Both the position numbers and the translations under genes were made by a program. From an uncultured Chloroflexia bacterium (GTDB lineage: Bacteria > Chloroflexota > Limnocylindria > Limnocylindrales > CSP1-4), in NCBI GenBank assembly GCA_963766675.1, contig CAVYBA010000002.1, positions 2,170,806 through 2,234,805 on the forward strand: a stretch of 64,000 nucleotides of DNA, in the 5' to 3' direction. The notes under the pieces are model-generated. The model ran no database searches. It saw only the letters and a list, made by a program, of their open reading frames with translations, and had not been told where the DNA came from. Shown in pieces: positions 24,015 through 57,045 of the stretch; the stretch's first letter is position 1; each line of letters opens with the position of its first letter.

Positions 24015-24899
24015 ATGCATTCGATCCTCTCGTCCGACCAACTCTCCCCCAACGTCACCCGCCTCGTCATTGAGGCGCCCCGGATCGCGCAGATCCGCCA
24101 GCCCGGGCAGTTCGTCATCGTCCGGCTCGGACCGGGCGCCGAGCGGATTCCGCTGACGATCGCCGACGCCGACGCGGCCGCCGGCACGATCACCCTGATC
24201 ATCCAGTCGGTCGGCAAGAGCACGGCCGACCTCGTCGACCTCCGGCCGGGCGACGCGATCACCGACGTCGCGGGGCCACTCGGCCGGGCGACCGACCTGA
24301 TCGAGCGGGGCCACGCCGTCTGCGTGGGCGGCGGCGTGGGCACCGCGGTCATCCTGCCGATCGCTCAGGAGCTCAGCCGCCGCGGCGTACGCGTGACGAG
24401 CGTGATCGGCGGGCGGTCGCGCGAATGGGTGATCCTCGAACGGGAGCTGGCGGCGGCGGGCGAGGTCGTGACCTGCACCGACGACGGCAGCTACGGGCGC
24501 CCCGGCTTCGTGACCCAGGCGCTTGAGGACGTGCTCAAGGCCGGCGGCGTCGACGCCGTCTACGCGGTCGGCCCCGTGCCGATGATGCGAGCCGTCAGCG
24601 AGCTGACCCGCCCGTTCGAAGTCCCGACCCTGGTCTCGCTCAACGCGATCATGGTCGACGGGACCGGGATGTGCGGCGGATGCCGCGTCACGATCGACGG
24701 CAAGACGCGCTATGCCTGCGTCGACGGCCCCGAGTTCGACGGCCACGCGGTCGATTTCCGTGAGTTGTCGGACCGGCTGACGACGTACCGGATGTTCGAA
24801 CAGGCGGCGCTCGAACGGCGCGACGCCTGCCGGGTTCCAGGGCTGGCCGCGGCGCTCGTCCGCGCCGATGCGGCGGTCACCGAGGAGGCGGTCCGATGA
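24015..24899 (+). CDS. NfnA/SudB-like FAD- and 2Fe-2S-containing oxidoreductase subunit
   Basis: PyrK-like fold. C-terminal cluster motif GTGMCGGCRVTIDGKTRYACVDGPEF. Stop overlaps the next ATG (ATGA). Confidence 0.8.
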   Translation: MHSILSSDQLSPNVTRLVIEAPRIAQIRQPGQFVIVRLGPGAERIPLTIADADAAAGTITLIIQSVGKSTADLVDLRPGDAITDVAGPLGRATDLIERGHAVCVGGGVGTAVILPIAQELSRRGVRVTSVIGGRSREWVILERELAAAGEVVTCTDDGSYGRPGFVTQALEDVLKAGGVDAVYAVGPVPMMRAVSELTRPFEVPTLVSLNAIMVDGTGMCGGCRVTIDGKTRYACVDGPEFDGHAVDFRELSDRLTTYRMFEQAALERRDACRVPGLAAALVRADAAVTEEAVR

Positions 24900-26416
24900 C
24901 CGACGAAACCGGCCCGATGGGCGCATCCACCCTCAGCAAGAAGGAGCGGATGGCGATCCTGCGCCACGGCATGCCCGAGCAGGACGCGGTCGCCCGCTCG
25001 CAGAACTTCGGCGAGGTCAACCTCGGTTACGTCCTCGACATCGCGCGCCAGGAGGCCGAGCGCTGCCTGCAGTGCCCCAAGGAGTACTGCATCGACGGCT
25101 GCCCGGTCGCGGTCAACATCCCGCGCTTCATCTCGTTCCTGCGCGACGGCGACGTGCAGTCGGCGGCGGAGTCGCTCCTTGGCGACAACGCGCTACCGTG
25201 TGTCACGGGCCGCGTCTGCCCGCAGGAGACGCAGTGCGAGCAGGTCTGCCTGCGGGCCAAGACCGGCAAACCGGTGGCCATCGGCTACCTCGAGCGGTTC
25301 GTCGCCGACTGGGCGCAGCACCACACCGACCAGCTCGGCCATGCCCGGCCGACACAGACCGGCAAGCGCGTCGCGATCGTCGGCTCCGGCCCGGCCGGGT
25401 TGACCGCGGCCGGCGAGCTGGCCCGCGCTGGGCACGACGTGACCGTCTACGAAGCCTTCCATGCCGCGGGTGGTGTCCTGATCTACGGCATCCCCGAGTT
25501 CCGCCTGCCCAAGGCAATCGTCCAGGCCGAGGTGGACCGGCTGATCGCGGACGGGGTCAAGATCGAACCGAACGCGATCATCGGCAAGACCTATACGCTC
25601 GCTGAGCTGCGCGAGCAGTTCGATGCGATCTTCATCGCCGTCGGGGCCGGCCTGCCGGTGTTCATGAGCGTTCCCGGCGAGAACCTCAAGGGCGTCCTGA
25701 GCGCGAACGAATACCTGACCCGGGTCAACCTGATGGGCGCCTGGAACCCCGACTCGGACACCCCCGTCCTCCATGGCCAGCGCGTCGTCGTGGTCGGCGG
25801 CGGCAACGTCGCGATGGACTCGGTCCGGACGGCCCGCCGGATGGGTGCGGCCGAGGCCCGGATCGTCTACCGCCGATCGCACGACGAGCTCCCGGCGCGG
25901 GCCGAGGAGGTCCACCACGCCGAGCAGGAGGGCGTCCTGTTCGACTTCCTGGTCGCGCCGCTCGAGGTCCTCGGCAACGAGCAGGGCTGGGTCCGCGGGC
26001 TGCGCTGCCAGCGGATGGAGCTCGGCGAGCCGGACGACTCTGGCCGGCGGCGCCCGGTGCCGATCGAAGGCTCCGAGTTCGTCGTCGACTGTGACATGGT
26101 CGTCGTCGCCATCGGCACTCGGTCCAATCCGGTGCTCACCGCGTCCGCCCCTGACCTCAGGGTCAACCAGTGGGGCTACATCGAAACCGACGAACAGGGC
26201 ATGACCAGCATCCCCGGCGTGTTCGCGGGCGGCGACATCGTCCGCGGAGCCGCCACGGTCATCCTCGCTATGGGCGACGGCAAGCGCGCCGCCGGATCGA
26301 TCCAGCGTTGGCTGAACGGCGAGCCCCCGGCCGAACCCGCGGCCGAGGGCGCCGCGCAGGCGAGCGATAGCGCCGCGCACGCAACAGAACTCGAGGCGGC
26401 CGCCACCACGCTGTAG
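24896..26416 (+). CDS. NfnB / homotetrameric-type NADPH-dependent glutamate synthase small-chain-like subunit
   Basis: N-terminal Fe-S Cys clusters (CLQCPKEYCIDGCP, CPQETQCEQVC). Two GxGxxG folds (IVGSGPAGL, VVGGGNVAMD). Ala/Glu-rich C-terminal tail. Confidence 0.85.
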   Translation: MTDETGPMGASTLSKKERMAILRHGMPEQDAVARSQNFGEVNLGYVLDIARQEAERCLQCPKEYCIDGCPVAVNIPRFISFLRDGDVQSAAESLLGDNALPCVTGRVCPQETQCEQVCLRAKTGKPVAIGYLERFVADWAQHHTDQLGHARPTQTGKRVAIVGSGPAGLTAAGELARAGHDVTVYEAFHAAGGVLIYGIPEFRLPKAIVQAEVDRLIADGVKIEPNAIIGKTYTLAELREQFDAIFIAVGAGLPVFMSVPGENLKGVLSANEYLTRVNLMGAWNPDSDTPVLHGQRVVVVGGGNVAMDSVRTARRMGAAEARIVYRRSHDELPARAEEVHHAEQEGVLFDFLVAPLEVLGNEQGWVRGLRCQRMELGEPDDSGRRRPVPIEGSEFVVDCDMVVVAIGTRSNPVLTASAPDLRVNQWGYIETDEQGMTSIPGVFAGGDIVRGAATVILAMGDGKRAAGSIQRWLNGEPPAEPAAEGAAQASDSAAHATELEAAATTL

Positions 26417-26462
26417 GACCCGCCACCGGGCACGGCCCGGGCGCAGCGGCCAGGGGCCGCGC

Positions 26463-26603
26463 TCAGCTGAACAGGACCTGCTGGCCGAACCCCGGTGCGC
26501 CTTCCAGATCGAGCATCCTCCGCTTCGTGTCGAGGCCGCCCGGCGCCGAGAACCCGGCACCCACGACCGAGCTCGAGACGGCCGCCGCCACGTTGTGGCG
26601 GGC
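26463..26603 (-). pseudogene. orphan 3' fragment of an ogt-like gene
   Basis: Translates to ARHNVAAAVSSSVVGAGFSAPGGLDTKRRMLDLEGAPGFGQQVLFS*, which matches the C-terminus of the intact Ogt at 27575. The active-site block is degenerate and there is no N-terminal part. Confidence 0.65.
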
Positions 26604-26758
26604 CAACCTCCGACGCTCCTGGCCAGGCGCCCGGCCCTGGCGCTGCCCGCCCTCTCGGACCCTGATTCTGGGCATCCACCAAGGGGAGTTGTAGTTCGTC
26701 ACACAACGCCGCCGGATCTCGACGGCGTCAGGCGGATTCAGGGCCGATCGGCGGCGGT

Positions 26759-27502
26759 CTACGCTCGCGGAAGGACGCCACCGGCCAGGGCACGCCTTCG
26801 AAGCCGATTGACGGACCCTGTCCGACCGCCCCCGTTGGTGGATGCGATCAGCCAGATCCCAGACAGGTTCGATTCCGGCTGGACGAGCCAGTCGCGAACC
26901 CGTCGTCCCCGTGCCGGCAGCACAACGTCCAGGACCGCGGCGCTGGCGCGGATCCGTCGTCGCGTCGTCTCCGTTGCCGGAAGCACCAGCAGCCGCCCAA
27001 TGAGGGTCGGCGTGAACCCGAAGCGGTCACGACAGATCATCCGGCGTACCAGTCGATCCTTTTCGTCCATCTTGCGGAGCGTGGCCTCGATGGACGCCAG
27101 TTCGGACTTGACTTCGATGGAGACGACCACGCCGACCGACGCTCTCGCGGCCAGGACGTCGACCGAGCCGCGTTCTCCGAACGACGCGTAGGTCACCTCG
27201 ACCATCGCCTCCCAACCCCACCGCCCCAGGGCATGCGCAGCCGCGCCGACCAGCCGACTATGGTCCTCGTCCAGCAGGCGATCGAGCGCGCCGCCCCGCC
27301 ACGAGACGACCGGCTCCCAACGCGCGTCCAGGGACGCGAAGACCTCGCGCAGCGTGCGGCTCGCCAGCGAGGATCCGTGGCCGCGTTCGATCAGCGAGAT
27401 CGCCTGCTGGGACAACCCGACACGCGCCGCGAGGCGTGCCTGGGTCCAGCGGCGATGGCGCCTGAGCGCCCGGAGGATCCGACCAATCCGGATGTCGTCC
27501 AC
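26759..27502 (-). CDS. XRE-type HTH protein fused to a PD-(D/E)XK (NucS-like) nuclease-fold domain
   Basis: GTG start. HTH WTQARLAARVGLSQQAISLIERG. Nuclease-core-like block ERGSVDVLAARASVGVVVSIEVKSE (D...E-x-K spacing). Confidence 0.65.
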   Translation of the reverse strand: MDDIRIGRILRALRRHRRWTQARLAARVGLSQQAISLIERGHGSSLASRTLREVFASLDARWEPVVSWRGGALDRLLDEDHSRLVGAAAHALGRWGWEAMVEVTYASFGERGSVDVLAARASVGVVVSIEVKSELASIEATLRKMDEKDRLVRRMICRDRFGFTPTLIGRLLVLPATETTRRRIRASAAVLDVVLPARGRRVRDWLVQPESNLSGIWLIASTNGGGRTGSVNRLRRRALAGGVLPRA

Positions 27503-27574
27503 CTCGGGATCATCGCGCTCGAGGCTTCACCGGCGATCATCCGCTCGCCGGGCCCCCGCCCCGGCCCGCGACGA

Positions 27575-28108
27575 TCAGCCGAACAGGACCTGCTGGCCGA
27601 ACCCGGGTGCTCCCTCGAGCTCGAGAATCCGCCGTTTTGTCTCGAGGCCACCCGGCGCCGAGAAGCCGGTGAGCTTGCCGTTGGCGCCCAGCACGCGGTG
27701 GCACGGGACGACGATCGGAAACGGGTTTCGGGCGAGCGCGGCACCCACGTCGCGCGCCGCGTCCGGTCGGCCGATGGCTCGGGCGAGCTCGCCGTATGTC
27801 GCAGTCGCTCCGGGCGGGATGGTCCGCGTGGCCGCATAGACGGCTCGACGGAGCGGATCGATGCCCCGTTCGTCGAGGGTCACGAAGCCGAGGTCCACGG
27901 TGCCCCCACCGAGCACGGCGACGATCCCCGAGATCGCGGCACGGATCGGCTCCGGCACGTCCACACGGTCGTCGATGCGCGGCAGACCGGCGGTCCGCTC
28001 GCTCGGCAGCCGGACGCTCGCAATCCCGACATCGGTCCAGCGCACGGCGCAGGTCCCCAGCGGTGTGGCAAAGGCGACGATCGACGGCTCCATCCTGGTC
28101 ATCATCAA
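27575..28108 (-). CDS. ogt: methylated-DNA--protein-cysteine methyltransferase
   Basis: 177 aa. Active site PCHRV, DNA-binding helix TYGELARAIG. The start may be one of several Met codons near the N-terminus. Confidence 0.88.
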   Translation of the reverse strand: MMMTRMEPSIVAFATPLGTCAVRWTDVGIASVRLPSERTAGLPRIDDRVDVPEPIRAAISGIVAVLGGGTVDLGFVTLDERGIDPLRRAVYAATRTIPPGATATYGELARAIGRPDAARDVGAALARNPFPIVVPCHRVLGANGKLTGFSAPGGLETKRRILELEGAPGFGQQVLFG

Positions 28109-28168
28109 TCGGAACCGCGCGCAGTGCCGAACCGTTGCACTTGCACCCCTCGCCCGCCTCGGGGCCGT

Positions 28169-29164
28169 TCAGCCTGGACGTGGCGCGTGCGCGGCGCGGT
28201 AGTGGGCCGCCAGGAGATCCTCGCCCCAGTCGTTGATCGGATCGCGCCAGACCGTATGGATATGGTTCGCGCCGTTCTGGGTGTTGTCGTATTCGATCAA
28301 CAGGGTGGGCCCATGGACGGCGTAGTAGTGGGCGTGACCGGGCTCGCCGGGTCCGGCCCACGCGAAGGTGATCTGATCCAGACCCGCGTCACGGATCCGC
28401 GACCATTCGGCGTCGGCGACGTCTGGCCGGCTTCGCTCGACGTAGTGCCGGATCAGGGCCTCGAGCGCCGCCTGCTGGCCGGTTTCGAGCGCGTCGTGGC
28501 GGATCCCTGCCGGCACCTCCCGCAGCTCGGCGCGCCGGCCCGTGCCGCTCAGGATGTCGGCCGGCGCGACCGGATCGACGATCGCCACGCGACGCTGCGG
28601 CGCGCTGAGCGACGAAAGGAGCGCTCGCGCCAGCCGCTCCTCGCCGTCGAGCGTCCGAAGGCCGGCCGATGGTCCATCCGGTACCGTCGCCGGGTTGGCG
28701 CCAAGGAACGACGGGGTTGCGCCGACCACGCGCCCCTTCGCAACCGTGATGTGGATGGCGACATGGTGTCCGCCGATCCGCCAGCTCCACGGCTCGTCCG
28801 TCCCGGGCGACCCGAACACGGCGTGCCAGTACAGACCTGGATCGCGCCGAAGCCAGTTGCCACGTCCGGCGCGCCGCTCGAACGCGCCGAGGATCGGCTC
28901 GAGGTCGATGACGCCGCGAACCTCCCGGGCGCCGCGTTCGCTCAAGGCCGCATCGACGATCGCGCCCGCCGCTGCGCGTTGCGTGGCCGTCATCTCGCCC
29001 TCGGCGAGCCCGAGCCGCGTGCCGGGCACATAGGCCCACGCAAACCGCTCATCGTCGTCGAAGCGGAACGTGGCCCGCGACCGCCCCGCGTCGTCGAGCG
29101 TGTCGAGCCAGCCGCGGACCGCCGCCGAAAGTCGCTCGGCCGCCGGTTCGCGCGTCGCGGTCAC
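28169..29164 (-). CDS. DUF3500 family protein
   Basis: ORF trimmed to the GTG at 29164, which overlaps the glyQS stop (GTGA). WSWRIGGHHVAIHITV block is typical of DUF3500. Confidence 0.7.
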   Translation of the reverse strand: MTATREPAAERLSAAVRGWLDTLDDAGRSRATFRFDDDERFAWAYVPGTRLGLAEGEMTATQRAAAGAIVDAALSERGAREVRGVIDLEPILGAFERRAGRGNWLRRDPGLYWHAVFGSPGTDEPWSWRIGGHHVAIHITVAKGRVVGATPSFLGANPATVPDGPSAGLRTLDGEERLARALLSSLSAPQRRVAIVDPVAPADILSGTGRRAELREVPAGIRHDALETGQQAALEALIRHYVERSRPDVADAEWSRIRDAGLDQITFAWAGPGEPGHAHYYAVHGPTLLIEYDNTQNGANHIHTVWRDPINDWGEDLLAAHYRAAHAPRPG

Positions 29165-30582
29165 GCGGCTTCGGTACGCGCCGCGTCCAGCCGATCCAGG
29201 ATCAGCCGGGTCACGCCTTCGACAGGGATCCGCTCCTGCGCCATCGAGTCGCGATCGCGCACGGTGACCGCGCCGTCCTCGAGCGAGTCGACGTCGACGG
29301 TCACGCACCACGGCGTGCCGATCTCGTCCTGGCGCCGATACAGCTTGCCGATCGCGGCCGTGTCGTCATAGACGGCCATCGTGTGGCGCTGCAGGTCGGC
29401 CTTGATGCGATGGCACAGCTCGACGATCTCGGGGCGCTTCTTGAGCAGCGGCAGGACCGCCACCTTGTACGGCGCGAGGTCTGGGTGGAGGGCAAGCGAG
29501 ACCCGCGTCTCGCCGCGAACCTCTTCCTCCCGGTACGCGTCGATCAGGAACGTGAACGCCGCGCGGTCGGCGCCGGCGGCGGTCTCCACGATCCACGGGA
29601 TGACGTGCTCGTTGGTCGCCTGGTCGAAGTACTCGAGCGTCTCGCCGCTCGCCTCGGAATGCCGCGACAGGTCGAAGTCGCCCCGGTTGTGGACGCCCTC
29701 GAGCTCCTTCCAGCCGAACGGGAAGCGGTATTCGACGTCGATCGCCTTCTTGGCGTAGTGGGCCAGCTCGTCGGGCGCGTGCTCACGGAGACGGAGCCGC
29801 GACGGCGTGACGCCAAAGCGCTCGTACCAGGCTCGGCGGCGGGGCAGCCAGTCCTCGAAGGCCGTGGCCGCCTCGGCTCCGGGGCGGACGAAGTACTGCA
29901 TCTCCATCTGCTCAAACTCGCGCATCCGGAAGACGAAGTTCCCGGGGCTGATCTCGTTTCGGAATGACTTGCCGATCTGGGCGATCCCGAACGGCAGCTT
30001 CTTGCGCGCCGACTGCTGGACGTTCTTGAAGTTGACGTACGAGCCCTGCGCAGTCTCGGGGCGCAGATAGATGACCGAGGCGTCCTCCTCGACCGGCCCC
30101 ATGAACGTCTTGAACATCAGGTTGAACCGGCGCGGAGCGGACAGCGGCCCGCCGTCGTCGGGGCATGTGAGCCCGAGCCGCTCGACGATCGTGGGATCGC
30201 GCAGCTCGGTCGCGGTCAGGTGTTCCGCGCCAGGCAGCTCGTCGAGCCGGAACCGCTTGTGGTCGGTCGCGCATTCGACCAGCGGGTCGCTGAAGCTGCC
30301 GACGTGGCCCGACGTCACCCAGACCTGCGGGTGCATGAGGATCCCGGCGTCGAGCCCGACGATGTCGTCGCGCTCCTGGACCATCGCCCGCCACCAGGCA
30401 CGCTTGACGTTGTTCTTCAGCTCGACACCGAGCGGCCCGTAGTCCCAGACCGCGTTGATCCCGCCGTAGATCTCCGACGACGGGAAGATGAACCCGCGCC
30501 GCTTGGACAGCGACACGATCGTGTCGAGCTCGGCAACGGCCGGCGCGACGTCGTTCGGATCTGATGCGGGGGCGTTGGTCAC
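29161..30582 (-). CDS. glyQS: glycine--tRNA ligase (dimeric class II type)
   Basis: 473 aa. SKRRGFIFPSSEIYGG, class II motifs and a C-terminal anticodon-binding domain. Confidence 0.92.
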   Translation of the reverse strand: MTNAPASDPNDVAPAVAELDTIVSLSKRRGFIFPSSEIYGGINAVWDYGPLGVELKNNVKRAWWRAMVQERDDIVGLDAGILMHPQVWVTSGHVGSFSDPLVECATDHKRFRLDELPGAEHLTATELRDPTIVERLGLTCPDDGGPLSAPRRFNLMFKTFMGPVEEDASVIYLRPETAQGSYVNFKNVQQSARKKLPFGIAQIGKSFRNEISPGNFVFRMREFEQMEMQYFVRPGAEAATAFEDWLPRRRAWYERFGVTPSRLRLREHAPDELAHYAKKAIDVEYRFPFGWKELEGVHNRGDFDLSRHSEASGETLEYFDQATNEHVIPWIVETAAGADRAAFTFLIDAYREEEVRGETRVSLALHPDLAPYKVAVLPLLKKRPEIVELCHRIKADLQRHTMAVYDDTAAIGKLYRRQDEIGTPWCVTVDVDSLEDGAVTVRDRDSMAQERIPVEGVTRLILDRLDAARTEAA

Positions 30583-55081: not shown

Positions 55082-55149
55082 GAGCGAGCGCACTGGAAGT
55101 GCGTGAGCGAACGAGCGGAGCCGGCAACGCCGGCCTGGGCCGTCCCGGC
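55082..55149. repeat. intergenic structured repeat, copy 1 (68 bp, identical to copy 2)
   Basis: GAGCGAGCGCACTGGAAGTGCGTGAGCGAACGAGCGGAGCCGGCAACGCCGGCCTGGGCCGTCCCGGC. Contains hairpins CGCAC-TGGAA-GTGCG and GCCGGC-AAC-GCCGGC. Confidence 0.9.
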
Positions 55150-55203: not shown

Positions 55204-55271
55204 GAGCGAGCGCACTGGAAGTGCGTGAGCGAACGAGCGGAGCCGGCAACGCCGGCCTGGGCCGTCCCGGC
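55204..55271. repeat. intergenic structured repeat, copy 2 (68 bp, identical to copy 1)
   Basis: Base-for-base identical to 55082-55149. Lies between the rpsI stop and the argF start. Confidence 0.9.
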
Positions 55272-56920: not shown

Positions 56921-56962
56921 GTCTGCGAGTCGCCGCTCAGGCGAGCTCTATGCAAGGCGCCA

Positions 56963-57045
56963 TCGAGCACCTGAGCGTGCGCACTTGTGGTGCGTGAGCG
57001 AAGGAGCGGAGATGACAACGCGGCAGAGAGCCGCATCAGCGGCGA
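56963..57045. repeat. intergenic structured repeat, copy 3 (diverged)
   Basis: GAGCACCTGAGCGTGCGCAC-TTGTG-GTGCGTGAGCGAAGGAGCGGAG...AACGC. Same core as copies 1 and 2 with a different hairpin loop. Lies between rplQ and truA. Confidence 0.7.

Follow-up and report, generated by a model that had tools for sequence, protein, structure and literature searches.

The question raised by the locus described here is how the 3' end of one gene came to be present twice, as a diverged direct repeat with exactly one other gene between the copies. The locus lies in a 64,000-nucleotide stretch of DNA, referred to below as the window, from an uncultured Chloroflexia bacterium (GenBank assembly GCA_963766675.1, contig CAVYBA010000002.1, positions 2,170,806 to 2,234,805; Limnocylindria, Limnocylindrales). 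The repeated sequence is the end of ogt, the gene for a methylated-DNA--protein-cysteine methyltransferase, and the gene between the copies encodes a helix-turn-helix (HTH) protein. To the left lies nfnB, a gene of the NADPH-dependent glutamate synthase small-subunit family, and to the right the glycyl-tRNA synthetase gene glyS. An initial annotation of this DNA took the arrangement to be the footprint of an element that had inserted into the ogt 3' end and left att-like repeats. The analysis presented here points to a different answer: the locus is probably the scar of a recombination in which two structural alleles of the nfnB-glyS region were joined, the parent lineages being about 14% diverged, and the HTH gene is, to judge from gene order in relatives, a conserved neighbour and not cargo or a cassette.

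A repeat search of the window returned the direct repeat as 98 nt, ungapped and 86% identical (26460-26557 against 27572-27669), and a BLAST of the 64-kb window against itself, which scores it at E=1e-25, shows just one other repeat family. Its 95-nt core (26463-26557 against 27575-27669) is identical at 82 of 95 positions, the same count as had been made by hand in the initial annotation, and the longest identical run between the two copies is 24 nt. The right copy is, as had been claimed, the true end of an intact 177-aa ogt with the PCHRV motif, which is recognised by PF01035. The left copy is an orphan, lying inside a 79-codon open reading frame (ORF) for which a Pfam scan gave no family match. 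Terminator, promoter, Rfam and tRNA scans of the repeat region gave no match.

The differences between the two copies are of a coding type. There are 13 of them, distributed over codon positions 1, 2 and 3 as 2, 0 and 11 (P=2e-4 for the third-position bias under frame-blind mutation). Nine are synonymous, against a share of 27% expected under frame-blind mutation (P=0.002), and the other four are the replacements E/D, I/M, E/D and G/S, in agreement with the earlier count. The third-position and synonymous bias implies that the differences accumulated in separate lineages, in which both tails were still coding. This supports the earlier suggestion that the orphan would be the tail of a different, once-functional ogt allele, and not a randomly decayed copy. 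With 82/95 positions identical to its own ogt and 82-86/95 to those of five other species, the orphan is about equidistant from all ogt tails and no nearer to its own. Its closest match anywhere, at 91.9% over 86 nt, is the ogt tail of L087, a locus of the type I arrangement described below. A protein search with the 79-aa orphan ORF found 27 Ogt proteins, most of them truncated, and no near-identical donor.

The orphan ogt tail is accompanied by a second orphan, which was overlooked in the initial annotation. This is a remnant of the nfnB 3' end, and it directly adjoins the orphan ogt tail at 26554-26597. When aligned with 26373-26415 it scores 40, compared with 21.7+-3.5 for shuffled sequences, and its former stop codon TAG now reads TGG (26595-26597). 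It is identified as an nfnB tail mainly because it is collinear with the real nfnB end of the related locus L005. The duplicated unit consists of an nfnB tail, a spacer and an ogt tail, present twice and head to tail, the spacer being 46 nt in the left unit and 977 nt in the right unit, where it contains the single gene. A gapped alignment extends the homology by about 26 nt past the ogt stop (26437-26462 against 27548-27574), so that the right 26 nt of the 46-nt spacer match sequence that follows the real ogt stop.

Relatives of the locus have two natural arrangements. In type II, nfnB converges on the HTH gene, which is followed by ogt on the same strand (nfnB-> <-HTH <-ogt). Type I has no HTH gene, and nfnB converges directly on ogt across a short spacer (nfnB-> <-ogt). 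Among the type II relatives, L002, L003 and L006 (79-86% protein identity) and L010 have the order glyS-DUF3500-ogt-HTH and then convergent nfnB, except that L006 stops after the HTH gene, and L005 (a short contig, 91%) has the ogt tail and HTH gene and then convergent nfnB. In these five relatives the HTH gene is in the same place, without the repeat. Even HTH homologues at just 57-69% identity keep the same neighbourhood, the order being glyS-HTH-nfnB in L004 (68%), glyS-DUF3500-DAO-HTH-nfnB in L171 (57%) and glyS-DAO-HTH in L169 (65%). A second ogt tail is absent from all of these relatives (L002, L003, L004, L005, L006, L010, L169 and L171), and among the loci compared it is present only in the window and in L001, which is the same strain. 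Since none of the five type II relatives has the orphan, the scar is derived and lineage-specific. The intergenic region between the HTH gene and nfnB is 131-185 nt in relatives versus 342 nt in the window, the excess being an extra unit of about 181 nt.

Type I loci were found by a metagenome scan with the Ogt protein. L087 has glyS-DUF3500-ogt and then nfnB-nfnA, with a spacer of 71 nt, and L095 has glyS-ogt and then nfnB-nfnA, with a spacer of 16 nt; ogt and nfnB are intact in both.

Each side of the novel junction in the window is collinear with a different one of these arrangements. On the left, the window from 26555 to 24015 (orphan ogt tail, spacer, nfnB and nfnA) forms one continuous block with L087 3012-5616, and is likewise continuous with L095 1070-3609. 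On the right, the window from 27748 to 26545 (ogt tail, HTH gene, intergenic region and orphan nfnB tail) forms one block with L005 1-1266, and in this alignment the orphan nfnB tail falls exactly on the real nfnB 3' end. The only overlap of the type I and type II paths is at 26545-26555, with the sequence CCGG common to both. This CCGG (26554-26557) occurs in the ogt context as A-CCGG-C/T and in the L005 nfnB context as G-CCGG-A, and it lies within a longer imperfect match, GCCGAGA..CCGG.

The two sides also differ in relatedness. Over the HTH gene (26825-27502) the window and L005 are sisters, at 93% nucleotide identity versus 82-85% to four other relatives. Over nfnB (24930-26320) the window is 90.6% identical to L005 and no closer to it than to other relatives. 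Because the two loci are sisters at the HTH gene and not at nfnB, the two sides of the junction differ in history, and this phylogenetic incongruence, as far as sequence comparison can tell, indicates frequent homeologous recombination in these lineages.

A locus that joins two allele types might be an assembly chimera of type I and type II strains co-occurring in a metagenome, given that the window resembles a metagenome-assembled genome and that both types occur in nature. The junction shares only 4-11 nt, which is too short for an assembler to join. Furthermore, an independent assembly, the Logan contig L001 (ERR11718635), spans the whole structure and holds both repeat copies and the junction, with a single mismatch over the 1435 nt of window 26270-27704 (99.93% identity). 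This makes an assembly artefact unlikely, and we regard a chimera of the two strains as very improbable.

The structure fits the type of scar left by homology-facilitated illegitimate recombination (HFIR), in which one end is homologous and the other is joined illegitimately at a microhomology of 3-10 bp (PMC3240628). The CCGG falls in this range, each side of the novel junction matches a different existing arrangement (L005 on the right, L087 and L095 on the left), and the coding-type divergence of the orphan indicates that the joined sequences came from different lineages. Incoming DNA of one allele type would have paired with a resident of the other type via a long homologous stretch on one side, and its other end would have been joined illegitimately at the CCGG, linking type I ogt position -95 to type II nfnB position -44. 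The product would have one intact copy of each gene, together with back-to-back orphan tails (ogt, then nfnB) between nfnB and the HTH gene. This could have happened in two ways. In one, a type I fragment anchored in nfnB would have entered a type II genome and brought with it about 181 nt of junk. In the other, a type II fragment with its anchor in ogt or further along would have entered a type I genome and brought with it 1112 nt, the HTH gene included. We infer a single event, with the mechanism and enzymology of HFIR, and a neutral scar. A more specific version of the second route, in which a type I lineage that had lost the HTH gene re-acquired the 1112-bp HTH block from an L005-like donor by one-sided homologous and illegitimate recombination, is a tentative suggestion that we consider possible but doubtful. 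Any such gain of the 1.1-kb gene-bearing block by a lineage without the HTH gene would have come about through general recombination and not as a cassette.

Several points weigh against a scar formed in this way. No near-identical parent of either type was found, there being no relative closer than about 90-93%. The homologous crossover and its tract were not located, as sliding-window identities to at least 8 relatives are mosaic, and for the direction of transfer the sliding-window identities, per-gene distance matrices and pairwise profiles among relatives are similarly mosaic, with no usable breakpoint. No recipient DNA has been deleted here, whereas typical experimental HFIR deletes it (PMC3240628). 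The preference of the orphan for L087 is based on 86 nt, and the orphan nfnB tail is only 44 nt long, its stand-alone score being matched by 1 of 300 shuffles. To our knowledge, neither natural competence nor conjugation is known in Limnocylindria.

The arrangement closest in geometry is a tandem duplication, and a remnant of an ogt tandem duplication had been among the possibilities listed in the initial annotation. Here, a unit of 1112 bp, running from the nfnB tail through the HTH gene with an intergenic region on each side of it to the ogt tail, would have been duplicated in a type II genome by slippage at CCGG, an internal deletion of the left HTH copy would have left 46 nt, and the copies would later have diverged. 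The alternating order of the tails (a, o, a, o) has exactly this geometry, the microhomology at the junction agrees with it, and so does the homology of the 26 nt downstream of both ogt stops. Against it, a duplication predicts neutral decay in place of the codon pattern observed, and the nearest relative of the orphan is at a type I locus and not in its own genome. It also leaves unexplained why the left unit is collinear, right through the spacer, with real type I loci, and it requires two events plus a later allele replacement. On balance, we consider a tandem duplication unlikely.

Recombination between the two allele types could also have gone through a circular molecule. A 1.1-kb HTH fragment would have been circularised at the CCGG, and a Campbell-type single crossover in the 95-nt ogt tail of a type I chromosome would then have integrated it, duplicating the tail. 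This route yields exactly the structure observed, the copies do share an identical run of 24 nt, and in an assay of HFIR in E. coli the most frequent outcome was a single crossover of a circular molecule, with duplications of 109-950 bp (PMC3240628). It would nevertheless need an illegitimate circularisation as well as recombination over just 95 nt at 86% identity. No evidence separates it from the linear one-sided route, but it takes more rare steps, and we give it only a slim chance.

We return to the proposal of the initial annotation, namely an integrative element, miniature or decayed, or else a cassette mobilised in trans, that targets the ogt 3' end, supplies a new end in its place and has the repeats as its att sites. 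There is indeed exactly one real gene between the repeat copies, as the initial annotation had stated, it lies between direct repeats with an identical 24-nt stretch in both copies, and its product is an HTH protein with a possible nuclease domain. Against this, L002, L003, L005, L006 and L010 have the gene in the same order with no repeat, and homologues of low identity keep the same neighbourhood. The gene is a vertically inherited neighbour, the outcome by which the initial annotation had proposed to reject its own reading. The nfnB tail is duplicated as well, which is not a footprint of site-specific integration, and a second copy of the unit was not found in the window. The remark that no recombinase is present was borne out: Pfam scans of the genes from about 5.3 to 42 kb revealed no integrase or transposase, so that there is none within about 15 kb, and only housekeeping-type genes, including those for PPDK, DUF2461, FNR-like, nfnAB, glyS, recO, polyprenyl synthase, CorC, GlmU, RidA and TsaE. 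Scans for tRNA genes and Rfam families gave no match, and no tRNA gene adjoins the repeat. An att-bounded element of any of these kinds is therefore most improbable.

The coordinates of the features discussed are collected in Table 1.

Table 1. Features of the nfnB-glyS region in the window, with the evidence for each.
Feature	Position	Strand	Evidence
nfnB/gltA-like gene (NADPH-dependent glutamate synthase small-subunit family), 506 aa, intact	24896..26416	+	TIGR01316 1e-173; Fer4_20, Pyr_redox_2; collinear with L087 nfnB
Present 3' tail of nfnB	26373-26416	+	
Spacer from nfnB stop to orphan ogt stop, 46 nt; the type I (HTH-less) intergenic region	26417..26462	.	Inside continuous L087 alignment
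Orphan ogt 3' end, left repeat copy, 31 codons + TGA stop	26463..26557	-	82/95 identical to 27575-27669
Junction, ogt position -95 to nfnB position -44	26545..26558	.	L087 alignment ends 26555; L005 alignment ends 26545
Orphan nfnB 3' end, ~14 codons	26554..26597	+	Collinearity with L005 real nfnB end; ~85% identical to 26373-26415
Type II nfnB-HTH intergenic region (ancestral), 161 nt	26598..26758	.	Collinear with L005; relatives 131-185 nt
XRE-type HTH protein gene, 247 aa; N-terminal HTH, C-terminal domain possibly PD-(D/E)XK nuclease fold	26759..27502	-	HTH_3 4.8e-8
ogt (methylated-DNA--protein-cysteine methyltransferase), 177 aa, intact	27575..28108	-	PF01035 8.8e-32; TIGR00589 1.3e-26; PCHRV motif in translation
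Right repeat copy, last 95 nt of ogt	27575-27669	-	Alignment to 26463-26557
DUF3500 gene + glycyl-tRNA synthetase gene, right flank, syntenic in relatives	28169..30582	-	PF12006 5.3e-82; tblastn synteny table

The HTH protein has 648 homologues, mostly from metagenomes of 'Candidatus Limnocylindrales' or other Chloroflexota. No Pfam or PADLOC family covers its C-terminal domain (about 165 aa), in which D115, E130 and K132 are invariant in 40 homologues. AlphaFold2 gave a model for residues 59-222 with a predicted local distance difference test (pLDDT) score of 83 and a predicted template modelling (pTM) score of 0.81. With the full-length protein, the results from Foldseek were dominated by the HTH domain. 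With the C-terminal domain, the matches were weak but consistently restriction-endonuclease-like (E about 3e-3 to 0.08, TM-score 0.3-0.4), and included R2 retrotransposon proteins (the part matched presumably being the endonuclease domain), Cap4, EndoMS and AF1548. A PD-(D/E)XK fold is thus a reasonable but unproven reading of the model. The XRE-HTH family with this C-terminal domain is conserved, and has so far been found mostly in Limnocylindria.

Three further observations concern this region and the window. First, the glyS-nfnB interval (window 26417-29160) is a small hotspot of gene content across Limnocylindria, as seen in loci L002-L171. It can be empty, with glyS and nfnB as direct neighbours, or can hold only DUF3500, only HTH or only ogt, DUF3500 and ogt in either order, a DAO-family gene with HTH, or DUF3500, DAO and HTH. 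In L168, ogt adjoins an FNR-like gene and nfnAB are absent.

Second, a recurrent boundary at GFSAPGG was considered and rejected. The candidate was P0138 in L167 (ENA ERZ28573135 scaffold_94612, 219-578), a DinB_2-like ORF that enters a decayed ogt 3' end and finishes with the C-terminal 30 aa of Ogt, so that it appears to be fused to the same 30-aa tail. The DNA has ogt homology for about 50 nt further upstream, with indels, and this is therefore a separately decayed ogt with a different junction. L167 seems to be a further case of a truncated ogt, in other surroundings; its contig is 838 nt long and possibly a chimera.

Third, an intergenic repeat of about 68 nt occurs in the window in three copies. 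Two of these (55082-55149 and 55204-55271) are identical, 122 nt apart, and lie between rpsI and an argF-like gene, and the third (56953-57021), at 83-84% identity, is situated between rplQ and truA. Short perfect hairpins, GCCGGC-GTT-GCCGGC and CGCACT-GGA-AGTGCG, occur within the repeat, which has no Rfam match and a fold z-score of just -2.3.

If the nfnB-HTH junction did arise by recombination between the two structural alleles, it offers a clear example from nature of the back-to-back orphan gene tails that remain when one end of a homeologous recombination is illegitimate. For annotation it is a caution: a 3'-end direct repeat around a single gene is not sufficient to call a mobile cassette. 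Its significance beyond the locus is limited. The feature, in a lineage of uncultured Chloroflexota, is probably an ordinary scar of recombination, of a kind already known. Were the HTH block to have been re-acquired, the scar would be a natural and datable record of the gain of a whole gene by HFIR in an uncultured soil Chloroflexota, and would suggest selection to keep the HTH gene beside nfnAB.

The locus resembles several known systems, each in part. Integrative elements at gene 3' ends, with att repeats in tRNA or protein genes, are similar in that a 3'-end direct repeat brackets DNA and the target gene stays intact. The present locus differs in lacking an integrase, and in relatives the unoccupied site has the intervening gene. 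Its repeat unit includes the tail of the neighbouring gene, and the 14% difference is spread along the copies, which have only short identical runs. Microhomology-mediated tandem duplications share the head-to-tail unit and the short microhomology at the novel junction, whereas here the differences are coding-selected and the two spacers (46 versus 977 nt) each match a distinct natural allele.

A nearer likeness in form is to the orphan 3' ends of Rhs, contact-dependent inhibition (CDI) and type VI secretion system (T6SS) effector-immunity loci, which arise by C-terminal displacement. There too a truncated 3' end is kept beside an intact, replaced copy after recombination with a variant allele, and HFIR has been invoked to explain such displaced 3' ends of genes in natural genomes, at Rhs loci and in T6SS arrays of Vibrio (PMC5361080). 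Those arrays, which are part of polymorphic toxin systems, recur and are under selection, whereas the present case is a single and apparently neutral scar between the housekeeping-type genes ogt and nfnB. HFIR itself, as described in Acinetobacter baylyi, Streptococcus pneumoniae and Pseudomonas stutzeri and in E. coli conjugation (PMC3240628), has the same homology anchor on one side and short GC-rich microhomology on the other, with locally heterologous sequence inserted beside the anchor. The present case differs in being read from a natural relic and not seen experimentally, in having no recipient deletion, and in that the partners are homeologues about 14% diverged. In addition, the 'foreign' end is here homologous to a nearby gene end, and it is for this reason that the scar would take the form of direct repeats.

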